Source of the DNA: an uncultured Chroococcidiopsis sp.
GTDB taxonomy: Bacteria; Cyanobacteriota; Cyanobacteriia; Cyanobacteriales; Chroococcidiopsidaceae
Direction of reading: 5' to 3'
DNA: 64,000 nt
Assembly: GCA_964248365.1 (NCBI GenBank)
Contig: CAXTYC010000002.1
Coordinates: 166,547-230,546 of the forward strand
Below the pieces are notes generated by a model. That model was given only the letters and a program-made list of their open reading frames with translations. It was not told the origin of the DNA and searched no databases. The position numbers were made by a program, and so were the translations under genes. Shown here one piece after another: positions 29,106 to 43,394 of the stretch (within the stretch, counting starts at the first letter, position 1; each line of letters starts with the position of its first letter).

Positions 29106-29582
29106 ATGGATTGTAGTCATATTCAGTTCTGTGATCGCAAATCCCAAATCGACCTCAATCAACTGCAAGCGCTGTTCCAGCTAGGAGCTTTCTGGGCGCA
29201 AGACCGCAGTGTTGAAGATTTAAGTATCGCCATTGCTAACAGTGAACCAGTAGTTAGCGTTTGGAATGGCGAGCGATTGATTGGTTTTGCTAGAGCCACA
29301 GGAGATGGTATCTACCGCGCTAACATTTGGGATGTGGTAATTCACCCAGATTATCGTGGTGCTGGACTAGGGCGCAAGTTAGTAGAAACTGTCTTGACTC
29401 ATCCCCGCATGAACCGAGTAGAGCGGGTTTACCTAATGACTACTCACCAGCAAAGCTTCTACGAACGAATTGGTTTTGAGTGCAATTCGAGTACTACGAT
29501 GGTGCTGTACAATCAGCCTTTGGCTAGTCCCCTTCCAGCGACACAGACGCAGTTTCAGGTTCAGGAATCATTAGGGGGATAG
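29106..29582 (+). CDS. GNAT N-acetyltransferase
   Basis: LIGFARA, WDVVIHPDYRGAGLG, FYERIGF; 3' end overlaps the convergent kinase by 59 bp. Confidence 0.92.
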   Translation: MDCSHIQFCDRKSQIDLNQLQALFQLGAFWAQDRSVEDLSIAIANSEPVVSVWNGERLIGFARATGDGIYRANIWDVVIHPDYRGAGLGRKLVETVLTHPRMNRVERVYLMTTHQQSFYERIGFECNSSTTMVLYNQPLASPLPATQTQFQVQESLGG

Positions 29583-30621
29583 TTAGCTGTATCCGCGTTT
29601 GCTCGTTTGTATCCGCCGCATCGGGAATAAAGACAATCTCCAGGCTACCCTGCATTAGTTCCAAAAGTGTCTGAGTCAGCAGTAGAGACATTCCAAATGA
29701 AGGAGCGGTATTTTTAAGTACTGACTGTTTAGATTGTAGGGTTTGAAGGGAATCTACTGGTTCCGACCAAATAGTAATTGGTAGGTTGACATCTAACCAA
29801 ATTTGTGCATAGTTTTGGGAAGAATTGGATTTTGCATCAGCAGCCATTGGAGGACTCGACTCGTTCCCAGGCTCAGCTTGGGAACGAGAGTAGGCGGATG
29901 TAGAACAGGTAGAAACACAGATACTGCCTTCCTCCATCTGAGTTAAGCAAGTGTCGAGTAAATTTAGTAAGGCTTGTCGTAGCCACCAAGGATCAGCTAA
30001 GACATAAATTTCTGATTCAGGCGGTGATAACTGAAGACGAATATTACGATTGGCTGCTACCAGATGAGTTGAATTATATACTTCTGCTAAGACGGCAGCT
30101 AATTGCAGCGGCTGAATTTCTAATTTGCTATTACCATGTTCTAAACGAGAAACTTCCAAAATTTGATCGATTAGGTCGATCAATTTGAGTGCAGAGGAGT
30201 TAGCCTGGGCAATAAAAGTACGCTCTTCAGCTGGGTCATCACATAAATCTGACAGAATTAACTGATGCAGACCAATTAGACTATTAAGAGGCGATCGCAA
30301 CTCATGGGAAGTCCGCGCCAAAAACCCAGCTTTAAATTTGCTCATTTGGTGTGCAAGCTGGTAGGCAATTTCTGTTTGCTTTAGTTTTTCTGTCAACTCG
30401 GACACTTCTTGAGTAGTGGAACCAGTGGGATTTTGGTCACGCAAAGACGCAAAGGCGCAAACAGACGAATTTTCTTTTGCTCCCCCAGCTCCCCCAACTC
30501 CCCCAGCTATCTCAATGGGTATTCTTTGGTTGGAAAGAGAGTTTGACCTAACAAACAACCAACGACTACCTACACCCAATCCTATCCCTATCGCTAAATA
30601 TATCCAATTACTCCAGATCAT
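29524..30621 (-). CDS. Membrane-anchored sensor histidine kinase (HisKA, degenerate HATPase)
   Basis: ARTSHELRSPL H-box, LRQALLNLLD N-box-like; G1/G2 boxes not recognisable. Confidence 0.8.
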   Translation of the reverse strand: MIWSNWIYLAIGIGLGVGSRWLFVRSNSLSNQRIPIEIAGGVGGAGGAKENSSVCAFASLRDQNPTGSTTQEVSELTEKLKQTEIAYQLAHQMSKFKAGFLARTSHELRSPLNSLIGLHQLILSDLCDDPAEERTFIAQANSSALKLIDLIDQILEVSRLEHGNSKLEIQPLQLAAVLAEVYNSTHLVAANRNIRLQLSPPESEIYVLADPWWLRQALLNLLDTCLTQMEEGSICVSTCSTSAYSRSQAEPGNESSPPMAADAKSNSSQNYAQIWLDVNLPITIWSEPVDSLQTLQSKQSVLKNTAPSFGMSLLLTQTLLELMQGSLEIVFIPDAADTNEQTRIQLTIPLMIPEPETASVSLEGD

Positions 30622-30745
30622 TATTCCCTCACACTTCACACGCACAACTCTTTACTTTGTGAGTTAACAAAGACAAAACTTGTAGTCAGGGGTGTCGAAA
30701 AAAAATACCGCTTGGGAGAACAATTAACGCCCAAAAAAAGCACCC

Positions 30746-33329: not shown

Positions 33330-34178
33330 TTAGGCAAGCAGTTTGTAGCAAACACTTTTGTTGAATTGCACCCGCTCAAACGAGTCATCAAGATTAATTG
33401 TCGTTTCACCACCACCCAAAAACAAATAGCCATCAGGTTTTAAAACCTGCCGTACCTTACCCAGAATTGCTTTTTTTGTTTGAGTATCGAAATAGATTAA
33501 AACATTACGCATGAAAATAATATCCATTGGCGGCAGTGATGACCAGGATTGGATGAGATTGAGCTGATGAAACTCAACCATCTGCCGAATATCTTCCTTA
33601 AGAAGCCAGTCATTATTTTGCGGCTCAAAGTATTTGTTTCGTAGTGTTTCAGGTAGTCCTCGGTTAACTTCGAGTTGATTATAACGACCATTGCGGGCGC
33701 GTGCTAAAATTTTGCTGGAAAAGTCGCTGCCAATTAGCCGCAAATTCCAACTTGTCAGCATGGGGAAATGTTCACGAATCAGCATAGCGATGCTGTATGG
33801 TTCCTGACCACTGGAGCAAGCAGCAGACCAAATATTAAGAGATTGATCGCCTTTGCGCCGCTCGATTAACAGGGGTAGGATAAAATCGATTAGCGCTTCA
33901 AAAGGATAGACATCTCGGAAAAACGTTGTTTCGTATGTCGCTAGTGCTTCAATTACTTGCACATGAAGCTCGCCAAATGGGACACTTCGCAGTCGTCTTA
34001 CTAACGAGGCGATCGAATCGAATCCTGCCGACTGTGCCAGCATTCCTAGATGTAGCTTTGCCAGATATTCTTTATCTGCATCCAGCACAACCGCTGAATG
34101 TTCACGGACTAAGTGACGAAGATAGGCAAAGTCGATACTACTTATGCCCATTGTCGGTTTGTTACAGTTCTTAAACAT
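33330..34178 (-). CDS. cheR: Chemotaxis methyltransferase CheR
   Basis: ETTFFRD, WSAACSSGQEPYS, RNVLIYFD motifs. Confidence 0.95.
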   Translation of the reverse strand: MFKNCNKPTMGISSIDFAYLRHLVREHSAVVLDADKEYLAKLHLGMLAQSAGFDSIASLVRRLRSVPFGELHVQVIEALATYETTFFRDVYPFEALIDFILPLLIERRKGDQSLNIWSAACSSGQEPYSIAMLIREHFPMLTSWNLRLIGSDFSSKILARARNGRYNQLEVNRGLPETLRNKYFEPQNNDWLLKEDIRQMVEFHQLNLIQSWSSLPPMDIIFMRNVLIYFDTQTKKAILGKVRQVLKPDGYLFLGGGETTINLDDSFERVQFNKSVCYKLLA

Positions 34179-34205: not shown

Positions 34206-35255
34206 TCAATTTTTATGTATTTGGTTTATAATTTCATCTGCCATTTGGTCAAGGGGTAAGATTTGATCGGCAAGTCCCGCATTAGCTACAAAACCAGGCA
34301 TACCCCAAACTACGCTGCTGGCTTTATCCTGAACTAGAATTTGACCTCCCGCCTCGCGGATACACTTGCAGCCATGCAGTCCATCTCCACCCATACCAGT
34401 CAGCACAACTGCTAATGTTCTTGCTCCATAAACCTGAGCTACAGAACGAAAGAGGACATCAACTGAAGGGCGACAGGAGTTTTCTGGTGGTTCTTGGTTG
34501 GTGGCAATTTGCCCTCCTGTTCCATGTCGCTCTACAATCATGTGAAAATCCCCTGGTGCTATCCAAGCGTATCCTGGTTCTAGGACAGCCCCAGGAAATG
34601 CTTCCTGGACGGGAATTTTGCACTTAGATGCAAGGCGCTGTGCCAATAGCTGGGTAAACATGGGGGGCATATGTTGAACAATCACAATCGGAACAGAGAA
34701 TTCTGCTGGTAGCTGGGACAGTAGAACTGCTAGGGCATTAGGTCCCCCAGTAGAAACCCCAATTGCTACTATGTCCACTTGTTTCTTTGCTAAAGGAGTG
34801 GGTGGAGCGATTGTTTGGGGAGCGATCGCAGGGGGTGATTTGGTACTATCTATACCAAATAACTTAATTTTAGGAACTAACTCTTGGCAGATGTGTTGAT
34901 TTGCCGCCTCTACACTACCTAAATTACTTGGCTTGGTAGCGTAATCATTAGCCCCCAAAGATAGAGCTGACAAAGTTGCTTCTGCTCCCGTGCGCGTAAA
35001 CGTGCTAAACATAATTACGGGTAGAAGTGGATAATTTTGCCGAATTGCAGTCAATGTTTCTAACCCGTTCAGATCGGGCATTTCTACGTCAAGGATGATT
35101 ACATCAGGATTGACTTGGGGAATTTTGGCTAGAGCAATGTAACCATTAGCCGCGACACCCACCACCTCTATTTGAGGATCGCTTGACAATATTTTACTAA
35201 CTCGACTACGAACTACTACCGCGTCATCAACAATCAGTACGCGAATCTTCGGCAT
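34206..35255 (-). CDS. cheB: Chemotaxis methylesterase CheB (REC + esterase)
   Basis: REC (IVDD, LDVEMP, KP); catalytic STGGP, VQHMP, TGMGGDG; RPSVDVLF. Confidence 0.96.
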   Translation of the reverse strand: MPKIRVLIVDDAVVVRSRVSKILSSDPQIEVVGVAANGYIALAKIPQVNPDVIILDVEMPDLNGLETLTAIRQNYPLLPVIMFSTFTRTGAEATLSALSLGANDYATKPSNLGSVEAANQHICQELVPKIKLFGIDSTKSPPAIAPQTIAPPTPLAKKQVDIVAIGVSTGGPNALAVLLSQLPAEFSVPIVIVQHMPPMFTQLLAQRLASKCKIPVQEAFPGAVLEPGYAWIAPGDFHMIVERHGTGGQIATNQEPPENSCRPSVDVLFRSVAQVYGARTLAVVLTGMGGDGLHGCKCIREAGGQILVQDKASSVVWGMPGFVANAGLADQILPLDQMADEIINQIHKN

Positions 35256-35286: not shown

Positions 35287-35338
35287 TGCCACCCATGCCC
35301 ATCAAATTATTGAATGGTGGGCATTGCCCACCCTACTA
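35287..35338 (-). repeat. 52-bp REP-like element, copy A (overlaps the MCP stop codon)
   Basis: Reverse complement: tagtagggtgggcaatgcccaccatt-N11-tgggcatgggtggca. Confidence 0.85.
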
Positions 35339-37171
35339 GTATTTGAATGTGTTAACAACTTGCTGTAAATCGACTGCCATGCGGGATAATTCACTTGCCG
35401 CTTGGTTCGTATTACTTGCACCTGTTGTAGTACTTTGAGCATTGACGGCAACTATACCAATACTCTTAGCAATATCAGAACTGCCTTTTGCTGCTTCTGC
35501 TACGTTGCGCGAGATTTCATTTGTTGTTGCTGTTTGCTCCTCAACTGCGCTGGCAATGGTATTTTGGATATCGTTAATTTGGTTGATGATGCCAGTAATT
35601 TGAGTAATAGCAGAAACAGCACCATTTGTATCAGTTTGAATCGCTTCAATTCTTTGGCTGATATCCTCAGTAGCTTTTGCAGTCTGTTTGGCTAATTCCT
35701 TGACTTCGCTAGCAACAACAGCAAAACCTTTACCCGCTTCGCCTGCTCGTGCAGCCTCAATTGTAGCGTTGAGAGCTAGTAAATTAGTCTGCTGCGCGAT
35801 CGAAGTAATCGTCTTAATTACTTTGCCAATTTCAAGACTGCTTTTGCCCAATTGAGTAATCGTATCATTAGTGTTGTCAGCTGTCTTGACGGCAATATTA
35901 GCCACTCTAGCACCCTCAGCAGCACTCCTGGCAATCTCCTTAATGCTGGCGTTCATTTCCTCTACAGCAGTGGCGACACTTATGGCATTTGTACTTACCT
36001 GTTCAGCTGAAGCTGAGGCTGATGTCGCCTGAAGAGCTGTCTGGGAAGCATTTTCATTCATTTCTTTACTGACTGCTGTTAATTCTTCTGATGCAGAGGC
36101 TACCGCAGTGGCTACGTCAGCCATTTGTTTTATCGAAGCCATCAAATTGGCAATCATCTGGTTAAGGTTATGGGTTAACTGTTTAAATTCCCCAGCATTT
36201 TGCGTCGAAATCTGCTTTGATAGATCTCCAGAGGCTACTGATAACACTACCTCGCCAATACTTTTCACCTGCTCTGTGAGATTGGTTGACATTTGGTTGA
36301 TATTGTCTATCACTTCTTTCCAAATACCTGATGCTTCCTCTAAAACGGCTTGAGAGCCAAGTTTCCCCTCAGTACCAATCTCACGGGCTACCCGCGTTAC
36401 TTCACTGGCAAAAACATTTAGCTGATCCACCATTTGGTTGACGGTATTCTTAAATACCTCTAGTTCCCCTTGGGTTTCTACGGTAATCTTTTTAGTGAGA
36501 TCTCCCAATGCGATCGCACTGGCAATTTCAGCGATGTTGCGAATTTGCCCTCCCAAAGTTGCCCCCATTCGGTTCACATTCTCTATCACTTCCTGCCAAA
36601 CACCAGCGCCTCCCTCTACCACGATTTGCGAACCAAGCTTGCCTTCTGTACCGACTTCCCGTGTCATTTGGGTAACTTCACAGACAAACGTATTAAGTTG
36701 ATCTACCAGTGTGTTGACAGTAGTGCTAACTTGTAGTATCTCTCCTGTTAAAGGTCTACCGTCGATTTCTAATGGCATTTTTTGAGATAAATCACCTCTT
36801 GCGATCGCGCCTATTACCCTTTGGGCTTCCCTCGTCGGCTTTGCCAAGTTATCAATCAAACTATTAATTGAATTAATACTGGTTCCCCACAAACCATCTG
36901 CGGTATCTGTCAGGCGCTCATGAAGTTTTCCTTCGCCAACTTTTTTACTAATTTCTACAATTTGATTAGCAAAATTTTCGTTCAGACTAACCCATTCATT
37001 AAATACTTCTGCAATCTCTCCCAATCCGTTATCTTCTGGTAATCTAATAGTAAAATCTCCATTGTTAGCTTGTTTTAGAGCATTAATTAATTGCATAGTT
37101 GCGGTATTTTCTATACAAACATCCTCTAATTTAGAATTTTTCAAATCATTTTCGCCTTGATTGTTATTCAT
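35336..37171 (-). CDS. Soluble methyl-accepting chemotaxis protein with ~7 tandem HAMP/HAMP-like units
   Basis: No TM segment; repeated GDL..K and [16 protein letters not shown] units; [34 protein letters not shown] hairpin tip. Confidence 0.93.
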
Positions 37172-37250
37172 TGCAAAATTCTCCTTAATTATTAAAACTA
37201 ATAAAGTACTTAGCTAATAGCTATAGCAATCCTAAAACATTCGTGAATAG

Positions 37251-37302
37251 TAGTAGGGTGGGCATTGCCCACCATTATCAGAAAGAGTGGGCATGGGTGG
37301 CA
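37251..37302 (+). repeat. 52-bp REP-like element, copy B (inverted relative to copy A)
   Basis: tagtagggtgggcattgcccaccatt-N11-tgggcatgggtggca; preceded by the MITE-like end tatagcaatcctaaaacattcgtgaa (37222-37247). Confidence 0.85.
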
Positions 37303-37313
37303 AACTAGAAATT

Positions 37314-37790
37314 TCACTTATCACATAGGACTGCTATAATTCCTTTTCTATCAAGAACTTTGTCTGTATCCAGAATCAGCAAAAATCCGTCCTTAAGTTT
37401 ATAAGCTCCCTGTAATACCTGCTGTAATTTGCCTTTAAGGGTTGCGGGTGGAGGTTCAAAATCATTTTCTGTGAATTCTAAAATGTCTCCAATGTCATCC
37501 ACTAATAGACTCACTACCTCCGCATCAGTACGCACTATTACATTGTAGGGAAGTTGCTCGTCGGGAAGTTCAGATATTGGTATTACAGGATCGCTCATCT
37601 CTAATCTACGGCGCAGGTCAATAATAGTAACAATTTGTCCGCGCAGATTAATCAATCCACAAATATCTAACGGTGCTAGAGGTACAGAAGTCATTTCTTG
37701 ATAGCGAATGACTTCTTGGACATGGCGCACATCAATACCAAAGAAAATCCCATTTAGAAAAAAAGTGCAAATCTGATGTTGAACAGGCAT
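37314..37790 (-). CDS. cheW: Chemotaxis coupling protein CheW
   Basis: FGIDV..VQEVI, GLINLRGQIVTIIDL motifs. Confidence 0.95.
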   Translation of the reverse strand: MPVQHQICTFFLNGIFFGIDVRHVQEVIRYQEMTSVPLAPLDICGLINLRGQIVTIIDLRRRLEMSDPVIPISELPDEQLPYNVIVRTDAEVVSLLVDDIGDILEFTENDFEPPPATLKGKLQQVLQGAYKLKDGFLLILDTDKVLDRKGIIAVLCDK

Positions 37791-37827
37791 TATCAGTTAC
37801 CAGTTAGCAGTTACCAGTTACCAATTA

Positions 37828-40125
37828 TTAATTTCCCTTAAGTAAATAAGGATTGGCAATCCGAACAATATTTTCAATATCGAGGATTTCAGTTATTTGA
37901 CCTTGGATAAGTGCAAGAAAAAGCACACCTGGTCTACTGGCTGCGCCTTTAATAGTAAGTGGTTCCTCTACAATATCAAGAATGCGCTCTACTACTAGTC
38001 CTATATTGTGTTCTTGGTTCAAAGAAACTACTACTACCTGAATAATGTCATCTTCAGCTTGTGGGATAGCCTTAATAGGCTTAAAGGCAGGCAAGGGGCA
38101 AACCTCACTATAATCATCCTGGGAATCTGCAATGCCAAATACAGTATGGAGATCGATTAGAGACAAAATTTTACCTCGATACTGTATTGCATACTGATTT
38201 GCAATCTTCTCAACAGCAGAACGGGGAAACTCTTCCAAGCGAAAAGTTTGGGTAAGGGGAATACCCATACGTCCACCTTGGGAACCGTGAAAAAGCAGCA
38301 CCATCTGGCGGTTGTCTTCTTGTTGGGCTTTTTGTGGTTGAGTACTGGACAGTTGCTGCTGCATTTGTAATGTCAAGCCAGCTCGTTTTGCCAGTGCGAT
38401 CGCATCTATAATTAGTGCAACCTTGCCATCACCCAAAATAGTTGCTCCAGCATAAATAGTTAAATCTTTTAACTGTTTCCCCAGTGGTTTAACTACAATA
38501 TCCTGAGTGTCTGAAATCTCGTCTACTACTAAACCAAAGCGGTAATTGTCAGCATTGATGACAACAATATTAATCGTTTCTAAGTCTGTGGTATCTTGAA
38601 CAAGCAATTCACGATTTAGATATACCAAAGGCAAAACATTGCCGCGCAAGCGGTACACAGGCACATCATAAAGCATTTCGATGTCATTAACAGCTTGTTC
38701 TTCGAGGCGAACTAGCTCTTGTATACTCGATTGGGAAATAGCATAGCGAGAGCCTCCACTCATCACAATCAACGCTGGAATAATTGCCAGAGTCAGGGGA
38801 ATCTTGATTTTGAATGTAGTTCCTTGTCCCAATTGACTATAAACGTCAACTGTACCATTGATCTTCTCGATGTTGGTTTTCACCACATCCATTCCCACAC
38901 CCCGCCCTGACAGATTTGTCACCTGTTGGGCTGTTGATAAGCCTGGTAAGAAAATCAAATTGACAGCTTCCGACTCGCTGATGCTAGCAGCTCTGCTAGC
39001 GGTAATCAGTCCGAGTTGCTGCGCTTTTTGTTTAAGCTGTTGGGAATCGATTCCACTGCCATCATCACTAATTTCTATATTTACTTTACCGCTTTCATGA
39101 AAGGCTCGTAAGCAAAGCCTTCCTACAACTGGTTTACCACGCTGTGTCCGTACAGTTGGTGTCTCAATACCGTGATCGATGCAGTTGCGAATTAAATGGG
39201 TTAAAGGATCTTTGATTGCCTCAATAATAGTCTTATCAAGCTCAGTTGAGGCTCCTAGCATTTCAACTTGTACTTGTTTACCACAAGCGATCGCCGCGTC
39301 ACGAACCACACGGGGAAACTTCTGCCAAATTATACCAATGGGCTGCATTCGAGTTTTCATCACCCCTGACTGCAACTGACTGGTAATCAGATTTAGCTGT
39401 TGGCAGGTAGCATTAAACGCCGTATCTTCTAGGCTATCGGCATATTGCAGCAGCTGATTGCGAGTTAAAACCAGTTCACCCACCAAGTTCATCACCTGAT
39501 CGAGCAAACCCACATTCACCCGAATTGAGGAGGGGCTAGAAGAGGGGCTAGGGGCTAGAGGCTGGGGGCTGGGGAACTCACCGGAAGATTCTGGGATTTC
39601 AGATATTTGATTTTTACTCACAGACTCCAACTTAGAATCCCTAGCCTCTAGCCCCAAACCCCTAGCCCCAAGTTCATCCCTAGCCTCTAGCCCCAAGCCC
39701 CTAGCCCCTTCCCCCGTTGCTTGTCCTACTACTTGCAGTTGGGTTAAAGTTTTGATCAGTGTTGAATAGTCAAGATTGCCTTCATTGCTACTTGCTTCGA
39801 TATTAGTGAGGAGTTGTCGTATAGTATCCACACCTTGGAGTAAACCACTAATGATACTATGATTCAGTTTCAGCTTGCCTGAGCGCAGGTTGCCTAGCAA
39901 ATTCTCACTAGCATGAGCGATCGCTTCTAACTTGGGAAAAGGTAGAAAGCCGCAGTTCCCTTTTATACTGTGAATTACACGGTATACCCGATCTAAAATC
40001 TCTCCATTGGTAGATTTTTTTTCTAAATCAATAATGTCGCGTTCAATTTGATTGAGATTCTCGTAACTTTCGACTAGGAAGGCTCTTATATCATCCTCGT
40101 CTATCTCATCTAACGCCATGTTCAT
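37828..40125 (-). CDS. cheA: Chemotaxis histidine kinase CheA (Hpt-dimerisation-HATPase-CheW-CheW, no P2)
   Basis: RVIHSIKG (P1), SIRVNVGLLDQVMNLVGELV, HLIRNCIDHG, DDGSGI, SGRGVGMDVV, PLTLAI; second CheW-like domain at the C-terminus. Confidence 0.96.
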   Translation of the reverse strand: MNMALDEIDEDDIRAFLVESYENLNQIERDIIDLEKKSTNGEILDRVYRVIHSIKGNCGFLPFPKLEAIAHASENLLGNLRSGKLKLNHSIISGLLQGVDTIRQLLTNIEASSNEGNLDYSTLIKTLTQLQVVGQATGEGARGLGLEARDELGARGLGLEARDSKLESVSKNQISEIPESSGEFPSPQPLAPSPSSSPSSIRVNVGLLDQVMNLVGELVLTRNQLLQYADSLEDTAFNATCQQLNLITSQLQSGVMKTRMQPIGIIWQKFPRVVRDAAIACGKQVQVEMLGASTELDKTIIEAIKDPLTHLIRNCIDHGIETPTVRTQRGKPVVGRLCLRAFHESGKVNIEISDDGSGIDSQQLKQKAQQLGLITASRAASISESEAVNLIFLPGLSTAQQVTNLSGRGVGMDVVKTNIEKINGTVDVYSQLGQGTTFKIKIPLTLAIIPALIVMSGGSRYAISQSSIQELVRLEEQAVNDIEMLYDVPVYRLRGNVLPLVYLNRELLVQDTTDLETINIVVINADNYRFGLVVDEISDTQDIVVKPLGKQLKDLTIYAGATILGDGKVALIIDAIALAKRAGLTLQMQQQLSSTQPQKAQQEDNRQMVLLFHGSQGGRMGIPLTQTFRLEEFPRSAVEKIANQYAIQYRGKILSLIDLHTVFGIADSQDDYSEVCPLPAFKPIKAIPQAEDDIIQVVVVSLNQEHNIGLVVERILDIVEEPLTIKGAASRPGVLFLALIQGQITEILDIENIVRIANPYLLKGN

Positions 40126-40228: not shown

Positions 40229-40594
40229 ATGGCATTAATTTTGATTGTGGACGATGCAGCATTTTCCCGCCGGATGATCCGCAAAGCTTTGCAAACCGAC
40301 GGCTATGAGATTTTGGAAGCAACCAATGGGCGCGAAGGGCTAGAAATTGCTTGCAGCCACACACCTGATTTGATTTTGACAGATCTCTTAATGCCCGACA
40401 TCAACGGATTTGAATTACTTCAGGCTTTACAAAAACAAGGCTTAAAGATTCCAACGATTATCATTTCAGCAGATATCCAAGAATCCTCACGCAAACAAGG
40501 CTTGGAACTGGGAGCCGCTGGATTTATTAATAAACCCCCCAAAGCAGAAGAACTGCGTAATACAGTGCAACAAGTTTGTAATTTCAAGGATTAA
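40229..40594 (+). CDS. Single-domain response regulator (CheY-like)
   Basis: IVDD, TDLLMP, ISA, NKP REC motifs; 121 aa. Confidence 0.93.
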   Translation: MALILIVDDAAFSRRMIRKALQTDGYEILEATNGREGLEIACSHTPDLILTDLLMPDINGFELLQALQKQGLKIPTIIISADIQESSRKQGLELGAAGFINKPPKAEELRNTVQQVCNFKD

Positions 40595-40600
40595 TTCTTT

Positions 40601-41209
40601 ATGCAGTTGACAGATGATGAAATCGATGCTCTAAAAGAACTAGTGAATATCGGTGTTGGTCGAGCAGCCAGTATGCTAAATGAAATGGTGGACTCTAGAA
40701 TTTTTTTAAAAATTCCGTCTATTCAAGTACTAAATGCAACTGATTTGCAACAAGAATTAACGAAAAAATTTAACAATCATTGTTTTGCTGCTGTCACGCA
40801 AAGCTTCACAGGTTCATTTTGTGGAACCGCAGAGCTAGTTTTCCCTACTGAAAGTGCATCAAAGCTGGTAGCAGTTCTCACAGGGGAAAAGCAAGGATCG
40901 CCGGATCTTGATGCTGTTAAGATTGGTACACTAACTGAAATCGGCAATATTGTTATTAACAGTGTAATGGGTTCGATTAGCAATGTGCTAAAGCAGTATA
41001 TGAATTATGCTCTACCTGTATACTTAGAAGACACCGTTGAAAACTTATTAAGATCAAATAATGTTAGCAATTCAACAATATTATTAGCCTCTGCTCGTTT
41101 TACAATTGAAGAATTAGAGATTATTGGAGACATTGTCTTAATTTTTGAAGTCAATTCTTTTGAGGTATTACTAGCCGCTATAAATCAGGAAAACCAAGTT
41201 CGATTATGA
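40601..41209 (+). CDS. cheC: CheC-family phosphatase
   Basis: Two ExxN sites: DALKELVNIGVGRAA and GTLTEIGNI. Confidence 0.88.
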   Translation: MQLTDDEIDALKELVNIGVGRAASMLNEMVDSRIFLKIPSIQVLNATDLQQELTKKFNNHCFAAVTQSFTGSFCGTAELVFPTESASKLVAVLTGEKQGSPDLDAVKIGTLTEIGNIVINSVMGSISNVLKQYMNYALPVYLEDTVENLLRSNNVSNSTILLASARFTIEELEIIGDIVLIFEVNSFEVLLAAINQENQVRL

Positions 41210-41261
41210 AGAAAGCTAAAAGCTAACTGCTAGCTGCTAACAACTTGTACTGATTTTCATT

Positions 41262-43310
41262 ATGGACAAAATGAGTCAATTACAGGAGAAATTTAATCTT
41301 TTAGATCGCGTTCCCTTGGGGGTTTGCGTTCTCCAGCAAGATCTATTTGTCCTATTTTGGAATTGCAGCTTAGAAGAATGGACGAAAATACCAAGAGAGA
41401 AGATTTTAGGAACTAAAATAACCGCTCATTTTCCCCATTTTAATCAGCCCCAGTATGCCAACCGTCTACAGCAAATATTTCATGGTGGACCTCCTACCAT
41501 CTTTTCTTCTCAACTGCATAAACATATAATTCCTGCACCACTACCCCAAGGAAAATGGCGCATCCAGCATACAACAGTTACTAGTGTACCTGCGTTGGAT
41601 GCAGACGAATTTTATGCACTCTTATCTATTCAAGATGTCACAGATGTAACTTACCAAATTCAACAATATAGAAATTTGCGGGATGCCGCTTTAGAAGCAG
41701 CGCGGATAAAATCACAATTCCTCGCCAACATGAGTCATGAAATCCGCACTCCTATGAATGGCGTTTTAGGCATGGCAGAGTTAATGTTGAAAACCGACCT
41801 TACTCCCCAACAGCATGAATTTGGTCGGGTAATCTTCAACAGTGCTAATCACCTGTTGACAATTATCAACGACATCCTTGACTTTTCTAAACTCGAAGCT
41901 GGGGAAATGCACCTACAAGCCCTGGATTTTGATCTAACAGATTGTTTGCAAACTGTGATTGATGTTTTATCTTCCCAAGCAGAAGTAAAAGGACTACAAT
42001 TAACCGCTTTAATCGATCCTCAAGTTCCCAGACTTCTCCAAGGCGATCCTGTACGGCTGCGCCAGATTCTCTTGAATTTGCTCGGCAATGCAATCAAATT
42101 TACAGACGTGGGTGAGATAGTAGTACAAGTTAATAGCCTAGAACCAGTAACTCCTAAAGGAGAAAATTTATCACCCACTGTACGTCTTTTGTTTTCAGTT
42201 CGAGATACAGGAATTGGCATTTCCCTACAAGGGCAGAAAAAGCTGTTTCAATCATTTACCCAAGTCGATGCTTCAACTACCAGAGAATATGGGGGAACAG
42301 GTTTAGGTTTGGCGATTTGCAAGCAACTTGTGGAAATGATGGGGGGTGAAATTGGTGTTGAAAGTGAGGCGGGAAAAGGATCGACTTTTTGGTTCACAGC
42401 GCAGTTTAATCAAGCCGCTATAGACCATTGGACAGAATATCAACCGAGTACGGTGGGTATATTGCCCGACTCGCCTCTACACCCACGAGTAACTACCGAC
42501 AACAAGCTCAAAATTTTGGTGGCTGAAGATAATTTGGTAAATCAGCAAGTGATAGTCAATCAACTTCAAATTTTAGGTCACGAAGCAGATTGTGCCACTA
42601 ATGGCGAGGAAGCTTTGGCAATGCTAGCCCAGCACGACTATGACTTAGTATTAATGGATTGTCAAATGCCAGTTTTAGACGGTTATACTACTACCCAACA
42701 ATTGCGCCGGATGGAAGGAAAGGACAGTCATACGGTAATAATTGCCCTCACCGCCAATGCTATGCCAGCAGACCGAGAGCAGTGTTTAGCTGCGGGTATG
42801 GATGATTATATTAGTAAACCAGTTAGCTTAGATGCCCTGCAAGCGGTACTGCAACGTTGGATTACTGTCAAGCAAAGGGCTGAGGAAGCTGAGGGATCTG
42901 GGGAGGCTGGGGAGGTTGGGGGAGAATTTATTGCGAATTCTAGAGAGCCTGTTACACTTAGGGCTGAGTCGGTTCCTCCGGTTGATTTACGTCGTCTGAA
43001 CGAAGTTATGCGCGGTAATAGGGCGCGACAACGCCGCCTTCTAGAAATATTTATCCAGAACACTCAGACAGAACTCGAAGGAATTAGGAATGCGATCGCT
43101 ACCTCAGATGGCTTGACGTTAGGGCAAAAAGGTCATCGCCTCAAAGGTTCAAGCGCTAATGTAGGAGTAAATTATATTGCCACTTTAGCCGCCGAACTTG
43201 AGCTTTGCGCTCAACAAAAAAATTTATCCCAAGCGAATTTACTGCTCACTGCTATTGAAAGTCATTTAGATAAAGTCAAAACTTTTGTTCTGACCCATTT
43301 CTCCGATTGA
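41262..43310 (+). CDS. Hybrid sensor kinase (PAS-HisKA-HATPase-REC-Hpt)
   Basis: PAS-like N-terminus, [47 protein letters not shown]. Confidence 0.93.
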
Positions 43311-43394
43311 ATCAGTTACCACTTAGCGAGCGCGCTTTTAGCTTTTAGCTTTTAGCACTGGTAACTGATAACTGGTAACTGATAACTTACTCAA

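Follow-up and report, generated by a model that had tools for sequence, protein, structure and literature searches.

The stretch of DNA analysed here (the window: 64,000 nucleotides, positions 166,547 to 230,546 of contig CAXTYC010000002.1 in assembly GCA_964248365.1, from an uncultured Chroococcidiopsis sp.) contains a gene encoding a soluble chemoreceptor, in which a rod of seven HAMP units is followed by a methyl-accepting signalling domain of class 38H. The units of the rod score as those of kinases such as AskA of Myxococcus, the partner genes of the receptor are intact and form a chemosensory cluster of class F5, and no match to flagellin or FliM/N was found in the host genome (G000, 99.97% complete). 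By sequence comparison, the kinase-type rod, found on chemoreceptors that belong to two classes and here part of an F5 system lacking flagella, is a real and conserved arrangement built of known parts.

A HAMP rod of kinase type on a chemoreceptor

The receptor gene and its immediate surroundings show the following features:

35336..37171, minus strand: soluble chemoreceptor gene, 611 aa, with a short N-terminal tail, seven kinase-type HAMP units and a 38H methyl-accepting domain
37181..37186, minus strand: ribosome-binding site AAGGAG of the receptor gene, 9 nt 5' of the ATG
37103..37171, minus strand: N-terminal tail, residues 1-23, predicted to be disordered, acidic, without the RKPGRSVFF peptide of long-rod relatives
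36137..37102, minus strand: poly-HAMP rod, residues 24-345, in the order D1-C-D-C-D-C-D, with Trp95, Trp192 and Trp284 in the C units
36743..36838, minus strand: third-HAMP marks of AskA-like arrays, Pro112 and an insertion in the linker for which a beta-hairpin with strands near residues 135-140 is predicted, from the AskA alignment, the structure model and PMC13446029
35339..36136, minus strand: methyl-accepting signalling domain, class 38H, tip E478 (35738-35740)
35945..35974, minus strand: putative methylation motif, residues 400-409, matched to the consensus pattern
35525..35554, minus strand: putative methylation motif, residues 540-549, matched to the same consensus
37246..37276, no strand: palindromic intergenic repeat, 5' of the receptor gene
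35313..35343, no strand: inverted copy of this repeat, 3' of the receptor gene

Pfam recognises only HAMP, HAMP_2 and MCPsignal (residues 417-577) in the receptor, with no PAS, and no membrane helix was found in it, the highest mean hydropathy over 19 residues being 1.05. The cap glycines of the seven units are residues 38, 79, 126, 176, 223, 268 and 315, and the non-canonical units hold the Trp residues 95, 192 and 284. The C-terminal arm of the signalling domain, counted from tip E478, has 133 aa, or 19 heptads, and the receptor therefore belongs to class 38H; this arm is 21 residues shorter than that of the T. maritima receptor 2CH7, which is of class 44H. A single-chain model of the receptor is of modest quality (predicted local distance difference test 66, predicted template-modelling score 0.32) and draws the linker insertion as two short strands; a fold search with this model gives significant matches to chemoreceptor signalling domains only, and atlas searches give HAMP/MCP clusters only, without alignment. 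A basic DNA-binding tail of the FrzCD kind was rejected, since the tails of 115 relatives show net charges from -6 to +4, mostly zero or below. Promoter and terminator scans gave results at chance level. Repeats of 7 nt are also found at 37790-37827 and 43357-43387, and within cheA at 39533-39709.

A recent survey separates poly-HAMP arrays into two independent types, A/B arrays before methyl-accepting domains and C/D arrays before GAF-kinase-receiver modules, and places the C/D type only upstream of kinases (Coles 2026, PMC13446029). There, the marks of the C/D type are an N-terminal D1 unit, a Trp in the non-canonical units where chemoreceptors have Phe, and, in the third HAMP, a proline kink and a hairpin. 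Residues 21-345 of the receptor match the Myxococcus AskA array (9TRK), its best solved relative, with an E value of 1e-82 and 281 bits, against 23.5 bits for its sole Aer2 match; the score against the NCBIfam Aer2 model is 158 bits, below the cut-off of 1200. Pro112 and the linker insertion align to the proline kink and hairpin of AskA, and the fungal protein P0015 shows the same HAMP type, with 48% identity.

The references for scoring the units of the rod came from 15 kinases, with 117 C and 130 D units, and from nine receptors, with 16 A and 16 B units; these receptors were chosen by motif and are not the seeds of PMC13446029. In controls leaving out the own locus, 277 of 279 reference units were assigned rightly (C 117/117, D 130/130, A 16/16 and B 14/16). 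The receptor rod scores as D, C, D, C, D, C, D, every unit matching kinase C/D units best; with C references its non-canonical units reach best scores of 83-158, with A references 38-52. How often Trp and Phe occur in the reference sets is set by the selection patterns and carries no evidential weight. Among the 120 closest relatives, defined as the best signalling-domain matches (76-100% identity, with one outlier at 54%), a C unit is present in 118 and an A unit in none; the two exceptions are a membrane receptor and a member with one HAMP. For 18 of these 120, the canonical unit nearest the signalling domain is scored as B. An Aer2 or A/B identity of the rod was rejected on the AskA and Aer2 scores, the unit scoring and the lack of A units among these relatives; on this sequence evidence the rod units are of kinase type, and not Aer2-like or of the usual chemoreceptor type.

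The initial annotation, made from the letters alone, had described a soluble receptor without membrane helix, PAS, GAF or Cache domain, in which seven alternating HAMP and HAMP-like units precede a methyl-accepting domain, and the hydropathy, Pfam and residue assignments bear this out. Its choice of a Nik1/Os-1-type (AskA-type) array over an Aer2-type one agrees with the bit scores and the C/D unit order, and its expectation of heptad class 38H with the 19-heptad arm. It also likened the array to that of OsaA-like kinases; the Streptomyces reference of the present comparison is one Streptomyces poly-HAMP kinase (L157). Of the HAMP-like motif that it gave ([18 protein letters not shown]), unit 6 has an exact copy, unit 4 a close one and unit 2 a worn one. 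That the receptor can be methylated, as it also held, is made probable by the methylation motifs and the adjoining cheR and cheB genes.

AskA (PDB 9TRK/9TRJ) and the fungal kinases Nik1/Os-1 and Drk1 share with the receptor the D1-(C-D)n order, the interface Trp, the junction glycines, the proline kink and hairpin of the third HAMP, and the lack of a membrane anchor (PMC13446029). In AskA and the group III kinases the array is followed by a GAF-kinase-receiver module, whereas in the window receptor it is followed by MCPsignal, so that the receptor is not a member of the kinase family; its rod has seven units against 21 in AskA, and its family has no conserved cysteine. With the A/B poly-HAMP receptors of PMC13446029 it shares the alternating canonical and non-canonical HAMPs before a methyl-accepting domain, and its seven units agree with the at least five HAMPs of those receptors. 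Unlike these and Aer2, it shows C/D units, Trp instead of Phe at the interface and no PAS-haem domain. The window receptor and a second receptor family described below thus cross the divide, drawn in the same survey, between A/B arrays on chemoreceptors and C/D arrays on kinases. In the literature searched, which did not extend to the 2010 HAMP surveys or the Ewers thesis, neither this cluster nor chemoreceptors with C/D rods were found described. Some of the 723 chemoreceptors of PMC13446029, whose supplementary accession lists were available in part, could be of C/D type without comment, and MiST may label these clusters F5 automatically.

The F5 cluster and its PAS kinase cassette

The genes of the cluster are the following:

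37828..40125, minus strand: cheA of F5 type, with Hpt, dimer, ATPase and two CheW domains, active-site motifs intact
37314..37790, minus strand: cheW
34206..35255, minus strand: cheB, receiver and methylesterase, catalytic motifs intact
33330..34178, minus strand: cheR methyltransferase
40229..40594, plus strand: cheY, divergently transcribed
40601..41209, plus strand: cheC-like phosphatase gene with two E-x-x-N motifs (the first found by script, the second read from the sequence)
41262..43310, plus strand: PAS-HisKA-ATPase-receiver-Hpt hybrid kinase of a conserved PAS type, likely the output

The cluster shows the order cheA-cheW-mcp-cheB-cheR, with cheY, cheC and the PAS hybrid kinase gene divergent from it, and active-site motifs are intact. 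It is assigned to class F5 by the two CheW domains of CheA, the gene order and the 38H receptor, features described for F5 systems in PMC10746217 and PMC10782961. Between the core of the window CheA and F5 CheAs from planctomycetes and myxobacteria, identity is about 60-69%, and Pfam finds no extra sensor domain in the window CheA. With F5 systems (in the same two sources) the cluster shares the order A-W-...-B-R, a CheA that carries two CheW domains and the 38H receptor; unlike them, it belongs to a host in which flagellin and FliM/N were not found, its operon has no internal cheY, and its receptor is without a sensor of PAS, GAF or membrane kind. Most other F5 clusters have their own cheY near mcp, in the place of which the cyanobacterial ones show the divergent cassette, and the window cluster holds no free CheY other than the divergent one.

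The window also contains psaF, psaL and tic22, which indicate an oxygenic cyanobacterium, and in the tree the receptors of the same genus group with records named Chroococcidiopsis. Since the host shows neither flagellin nor FliM/N, the cluster is F5 by descent and cannot work like a flagellar F5 system. Non-photosynthetic members of the phylum do show flagellin and FliM/N (3/3 and 2/2). Descent from these flagellated relatives was rejected, since their F5 receptors have PAS-like inputs and the cyanobacterial CheAs do not have theirs as sister group; a motif filter kept their receptors out of the receptor tree. Cyanobacterial chemosensory systems are described, in 10.1101/2021.06.11.447907, as "typically" without CheR and CheB, so that a system of flagellar class retaining both enzymes in cyanobacteria departs from this description. 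Two further clusters with cheR and cheB are found in G000 (G000:C5:55870-67875 and G000:C1:377718-387088). Neither a second receptor of the poly-HAMP 38H type nor any other poly-HAMP gene was found in G000, and a donor kinase within the same genome was rejected on the latter ground.

Among 40 cyanobacterial loci, which are kin to each other and in some cases cut by contig ends, cheA is present in 34, cheC in 34, the cassette cheY in 32 and the PAS protein in 28. The linkage to cheY-cheC-PAS is conserved. In all 20 PAS loci fetched, cheY and cheC adjoin the PAS gene. The FSSQLH-type PAS cassette (40229-43310 in the window; also loci L246-L256) was found in 34 of 401 genomes, 22 of them lacking the receptor, with all 19 of one genus among them. 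Its PAS domain is present in all 12 receptor genomes, with 48-80% identity. No description of a cheY-cheC-PAS cassette was found in the literature searched. Elsewhere in the window, a protein with a HisKA domain (29524-30645, minus strand) shows a hydrophobic N-terminus and no ATPase domain by Pfam.

Two receptor families and the history of the rod

Family 1 contains the 38H receptors of cyanobacteria. In 80 genome loci, the rod is present in all 24 cyanobacterial loci and in none of the 56 other F5 loci; one of these 56 carries an A/B array, and those inspected have PAS, GAF or membrane sensors. A 401-genome sample of the phylum gave matches to the signalling domain in 17 genomes, of which 12 belong to the order or class of the window and have one match each, and five belong to other classes and lack the rod. 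The distribution across cyanobacteria is patchy. In the genus of the window the receptor is present in all seven genomes, with one copy interrupted. The distance from tip to Phe is 131 aa in 119 of 119 relatives. Counts of HAMP units in 124 proteins are one (one protein), two (one), three (48), four (six), five (25), seven (32) and 12-30 (five), with six proteins incomplete. In most short-rod receptors the unit that adjoins the signalling domain is a D unit; in the long-rod clade and in P0194, a short-rod member with two units, it is a C unit. In quick tree searches, the cyanobacterial rows fall on one side of a branch both for the signalling domain (38 against 57 rows; support by the Shimodaira-Hasegawa-like approximate likelihood-ratio test, SH-aLRT, 97) and for CheA (33 against 43 rows, SH-aLRT 99).

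The rod is under purifying selection. Its ratio of nonsynonymous to synonymous substitution rates (dN/dS) is 0.10-0.26 in 10 of 11 measurable pairs and 0.40 in one pair of low divergence (two of the 13 pairs are saturated), and that of the signalling domain is 0-0.15. The interface Trp is kept, W284 being present in 37 of 38 rows, and a decaying remnant is not supported by the dN/dS of the rod. Fragmented receptor genes are found at L134:10377-11860 (G001, broken near the tip), L058:6409-11488 (an Okeania record, three open reading frames) and L130:9620-11938 (G323, two), which may be assembly errors or decay. In long-rod clusters cheB is adjoined by a protein of 326-337 aa that belongs to no Pfam family and in part weakly resembles CheC (L129:12785-13795, L130, L029, L030 and L058:15293-16270). 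The long-rod locus L045:2210-6509 shows genes for receiver-GGDEF and PAS-GGDEF-EAL proteins upstream of parA-mcp, a possible cyclic di-GMP output.

In family 2 a rod of this kind precedes another type of signalling domain. When the domain of one such protein, P0098, served as query, 83 of the 120 matches listed had C/D rods of 5-30 units and the other 37 had none. Names in this family include Methanoperedenaceae, Nitrospirae, Limnocylindrales and Acidobacteriia, bacteria and archaea of sediment type. In 76 of the 83, tip and Phe lie 152 aa apart, three heptads more than the 131 aa of family 1, and family 2 is therefore assigned to 44H. Its operons (21 loci, L158-L178) show the order parA-mcp-cheW-cheY-cheB-cheA-cheC-cheD-PAS, and no cheR was seen in them. 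In several of these loci a kaiC-like gene follows PAS (e.g. L163:6599-21566), and a PAS domain lies inside the CheA of L163.

Many members carry the N-terminal peptide RKPGRSVFF, which is present in 34 of 47 complete family-2 members and in all five long-rod cyanobacterial proteins; it was found in none of 111 short-rod proteins (including that of the window), 14 cyanobacterial kinases and 62 other arrays, with a search pattern made after the motif was seen. A parA gene lies directly upstream in eight of nine motif-bearing loci and in none of 32 motif-less loci, with two not assessable. Of four loci missed by the filter, L162, L163 and L173 have both peptide and parA, and in L158 the motif is worn and parA is missing. 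Between the parA of cyanobacteria and that of family 2, identity is 45-49%; the cyanobacterial parA was found in one of the 401 genomes, G305, whose receptor bears the motif. For TlpT and PpfA, a basic N-terminus is proposed to activate the ParA by which a cytoplasmic array is positioned (PMC3964821, PMC7993993). By analogy RKPGRSVFF is a new candidate ParA-activating peptide; relatives of the window receptor resemble, by description, the Rhodobacter TlpT/PpfA cluster in being soluble receptors with a basic N-terminal peptide, encoded directly after parA, and the window gene differs in having neither the peptide nor this parA. The RKPGRSVFF loci are L045:8033-8080, L058, L128 and L161-L175. 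Among 150 representative matches, mostly fragments, 12 have the motif: two full receptors, nine fragments and one protein with a kinase-like end. P0443 is a motif-bearing receptor of 554 aa with a 38H-like end, outside both main groups.

In a tree of units 1-4 under a mixture model, all 34 receptor rods are separated from the 31 rods of kinases or non-receptors (SH-aLRT 99), and the 20 cyanobacterial receptors nest inside family 2 (92). This tree samples 65 of 173 rows with one long branch left out, and a tree of 101 rows agrees; many "other kinase" rows of the rod trees are partial proteins with an assumed effector. A constraint joining units 1-4 of the receptors to the cyanobacterial kinases gives p = 0.013 in the approximately unbiased test, run after the trees had been seen, and a direct origin of the front end from cyanobacterial poly-HAMP kinases was accordingly rejected. 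For the last C-D module, 22 of 23 short-rod receptors group with the last modules of kinases (95; 92 columns). By these trees the front end groups with family-2 receptors and the last module with kinase ends, and the rod is therefore a mosaic or has retained an ancestral end module; a simple single transfer fits this poorly. The front end may have come from the 44H lineage together with parA and the basic N-terminal peptide and then joined a 38H domain, after which the lineage of the window would have lost parA and peptide and shortened the rod.

The initial annotation had explained the receptor by a domain shuffle that placed the rod on a methylatable receptor. The fusion is real; it is not one-off, since it is found in a conserved cyanobacterial family and in a 44H family. 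Of the receptors with a poly-HAMP array before MCPsignal, which it proposed to count, the cyanobacterial family was found in 12 of 401 sampled genomes of the phylum, besides the 44H family. Its suggestion that the shuffle brought adaptation holds insofar as the receptor bears putative methylation motifs, but adaptation was not necessarily gained in this way because cheR and cheB adjoin six of 14 cyanobacterial poly-HAMP kinase loci. In L138, L139, L141, L142, L145 and L149 the poly-HAMP hybrid kinase gene is followed by cheR and a methylesterase-only cheB, and a Glu/Gln-rich coiled coil lies between GAF and kinase. Such kinases with adjoining cheR and cheB fit the MAC2 systems described in 10.1101/2022.05.07.491037, so that rod and methylation enzymes already co-occur there; unlike MAC2, the window receptor and its kinase are separate proteins linked by CheW.

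Possible input and output of the receptor

The survey PMC13446029 calls the role of poly-HAMP arrays unclear and proposes them as modulators tuned by length. The receptors offer a natural test series, with one rod type of about 1 to 30 units, C or D endings and an output that is easily measured (CheA activity, methylation), and make sensing by the rods of fungicide-target kinases, and the travel of signals along them, testable in a simple bacterial assay. In the reading that we prefer, to which we give roughly even chances, the rod of this membrane-free 38H receptor, in its intact F5 cluster, is a ligand-free input to CheA tuned by length, with output through CheY and CheC to the PAS kinase. 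Receptor, CheA and CheW would form a cytoplasmic array, in which the rod, likely without a ligand pocket, would act as a conformational input biasing CheA; CheR and CheB would methylate and demethylate the receptor and so give adaptation, and CheY and CheC would carry the signal to the adjoining PAS hybrid kinase, as their linkage suggests. The weakest step, which we consider doubtful, is a sensing of the cytoplasm's physical state (crowding, loss of water) by the rod through the packing of the array. Soluble arrays form sandwiches stabilised by crowding, according to PMC3964821.

Several observations weigh against the length-tuned input and the history given above. The one-HAMP members L126 and L133 retain the whole cluster, and the rod may thus matter little; the copy L134, of the same genus, is interrupted; the trees come from quick searches, and their short-rod rows are fast-evolving; and the last C-D module is kinase-like. 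The motif-bearing locus L022 has no adjacent parA, and the motif is not exclusive to receptors, as the motif-bearing P0385 ends in a kinase-like ATPase domain. The cheY-cheC-PAS cassette is present in 22 genomes without the receptor; it is therefore a module of its own, whose wiring to this CheA is suggested by linkage.

A wider version of the length-tuned input is improbable. Kinase-type rods would then define a third, undescribed class of soluble chemoreceptors within two chemosensory classes, one 44H and F1-like in sediment bacteria and archaea, the other 38H and F5 in cyanobacteria. Their rods would sense cytoplasmic state, with length (1 to 30 HAMPs) setting sensitivity and array thickness; RKPGRSVFF would make the long forms ParA-positioned organelles, and the short form in land cyanobacteria would be an adapting dehydration sensor driving a PAS kinase instead of flagella.

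A dedicated switch for osmotic or aldehyde/redox change, working in the rod like that of fungal group III kinases and responsive to osmolytes, methylglyoxal or fludioxonil, is likewise unlikely, and the osmotic or redox sensing proposed in the initial annotation finds no support here. The rod shares its HAMP type with AskA and with P0015 (48% identity), the receptor is the sole one of its system (one 38H match in each of 12 genomes), and many named hosts are soil or rock cyanobacteria, which speaks for such a switch; the long-rod members come from marine genera, which speaks against it. Also in its favour, fungal poly-HAMP arrays contribute to osmosensing (PMC13446029). The switch is weakened because that of DhNik1 needs the HAMP4-HAMP5 pair (PMC5159414), yet members mostly have fewer units, 48 of 118 measured having three and one having one. 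It is also weakened because fludioxonil acts through methylglyoxal and Cys392 of Drk1 (PMC6433957), whereas cysteine is absent before the signalling domain in 98 of the 120 closest relatives, and C164, the one cysteine of the array, is kept in two of 13 aligned rows covering the position.

There is little probability that the rod serves a partner protein as docking surface, with the cheY-cheC-PAS kinase cassette as input and not output. The high conservation of the PAS domain (48-80% identity, in 12 of 12 receptor genomes), the own receiver and Hpt of the window's PAS kinase and the lack of a recognised sensor in the receptor favour it; the cassette occurs in 22 genomes without receptor, a fixed binding site fits badly with rods that vary between 1 and about 30 units, and the cluster has no other free CheY. 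It is also quite improbable that the rod is a spacer or tether, which ancestrally held the ParA-activating peptide off the array and is now a structural leftover, the input entering through the signalling domain or CheA. Peptide and parA do occur together (8/9 motif-bearing loci, 0/32 motif-less loci), long rods are found mainly where the peptide is retained, TlpT and PpfA offer a precedent (PMC3964821, PMC7993993), and some CheAs of the 44H family have their own PAS domain (L163), but shortened rods are still under purifying selection and keep the interface Trp (W284, 37/38 rows), and the window CheA carries no extra sensor domain.

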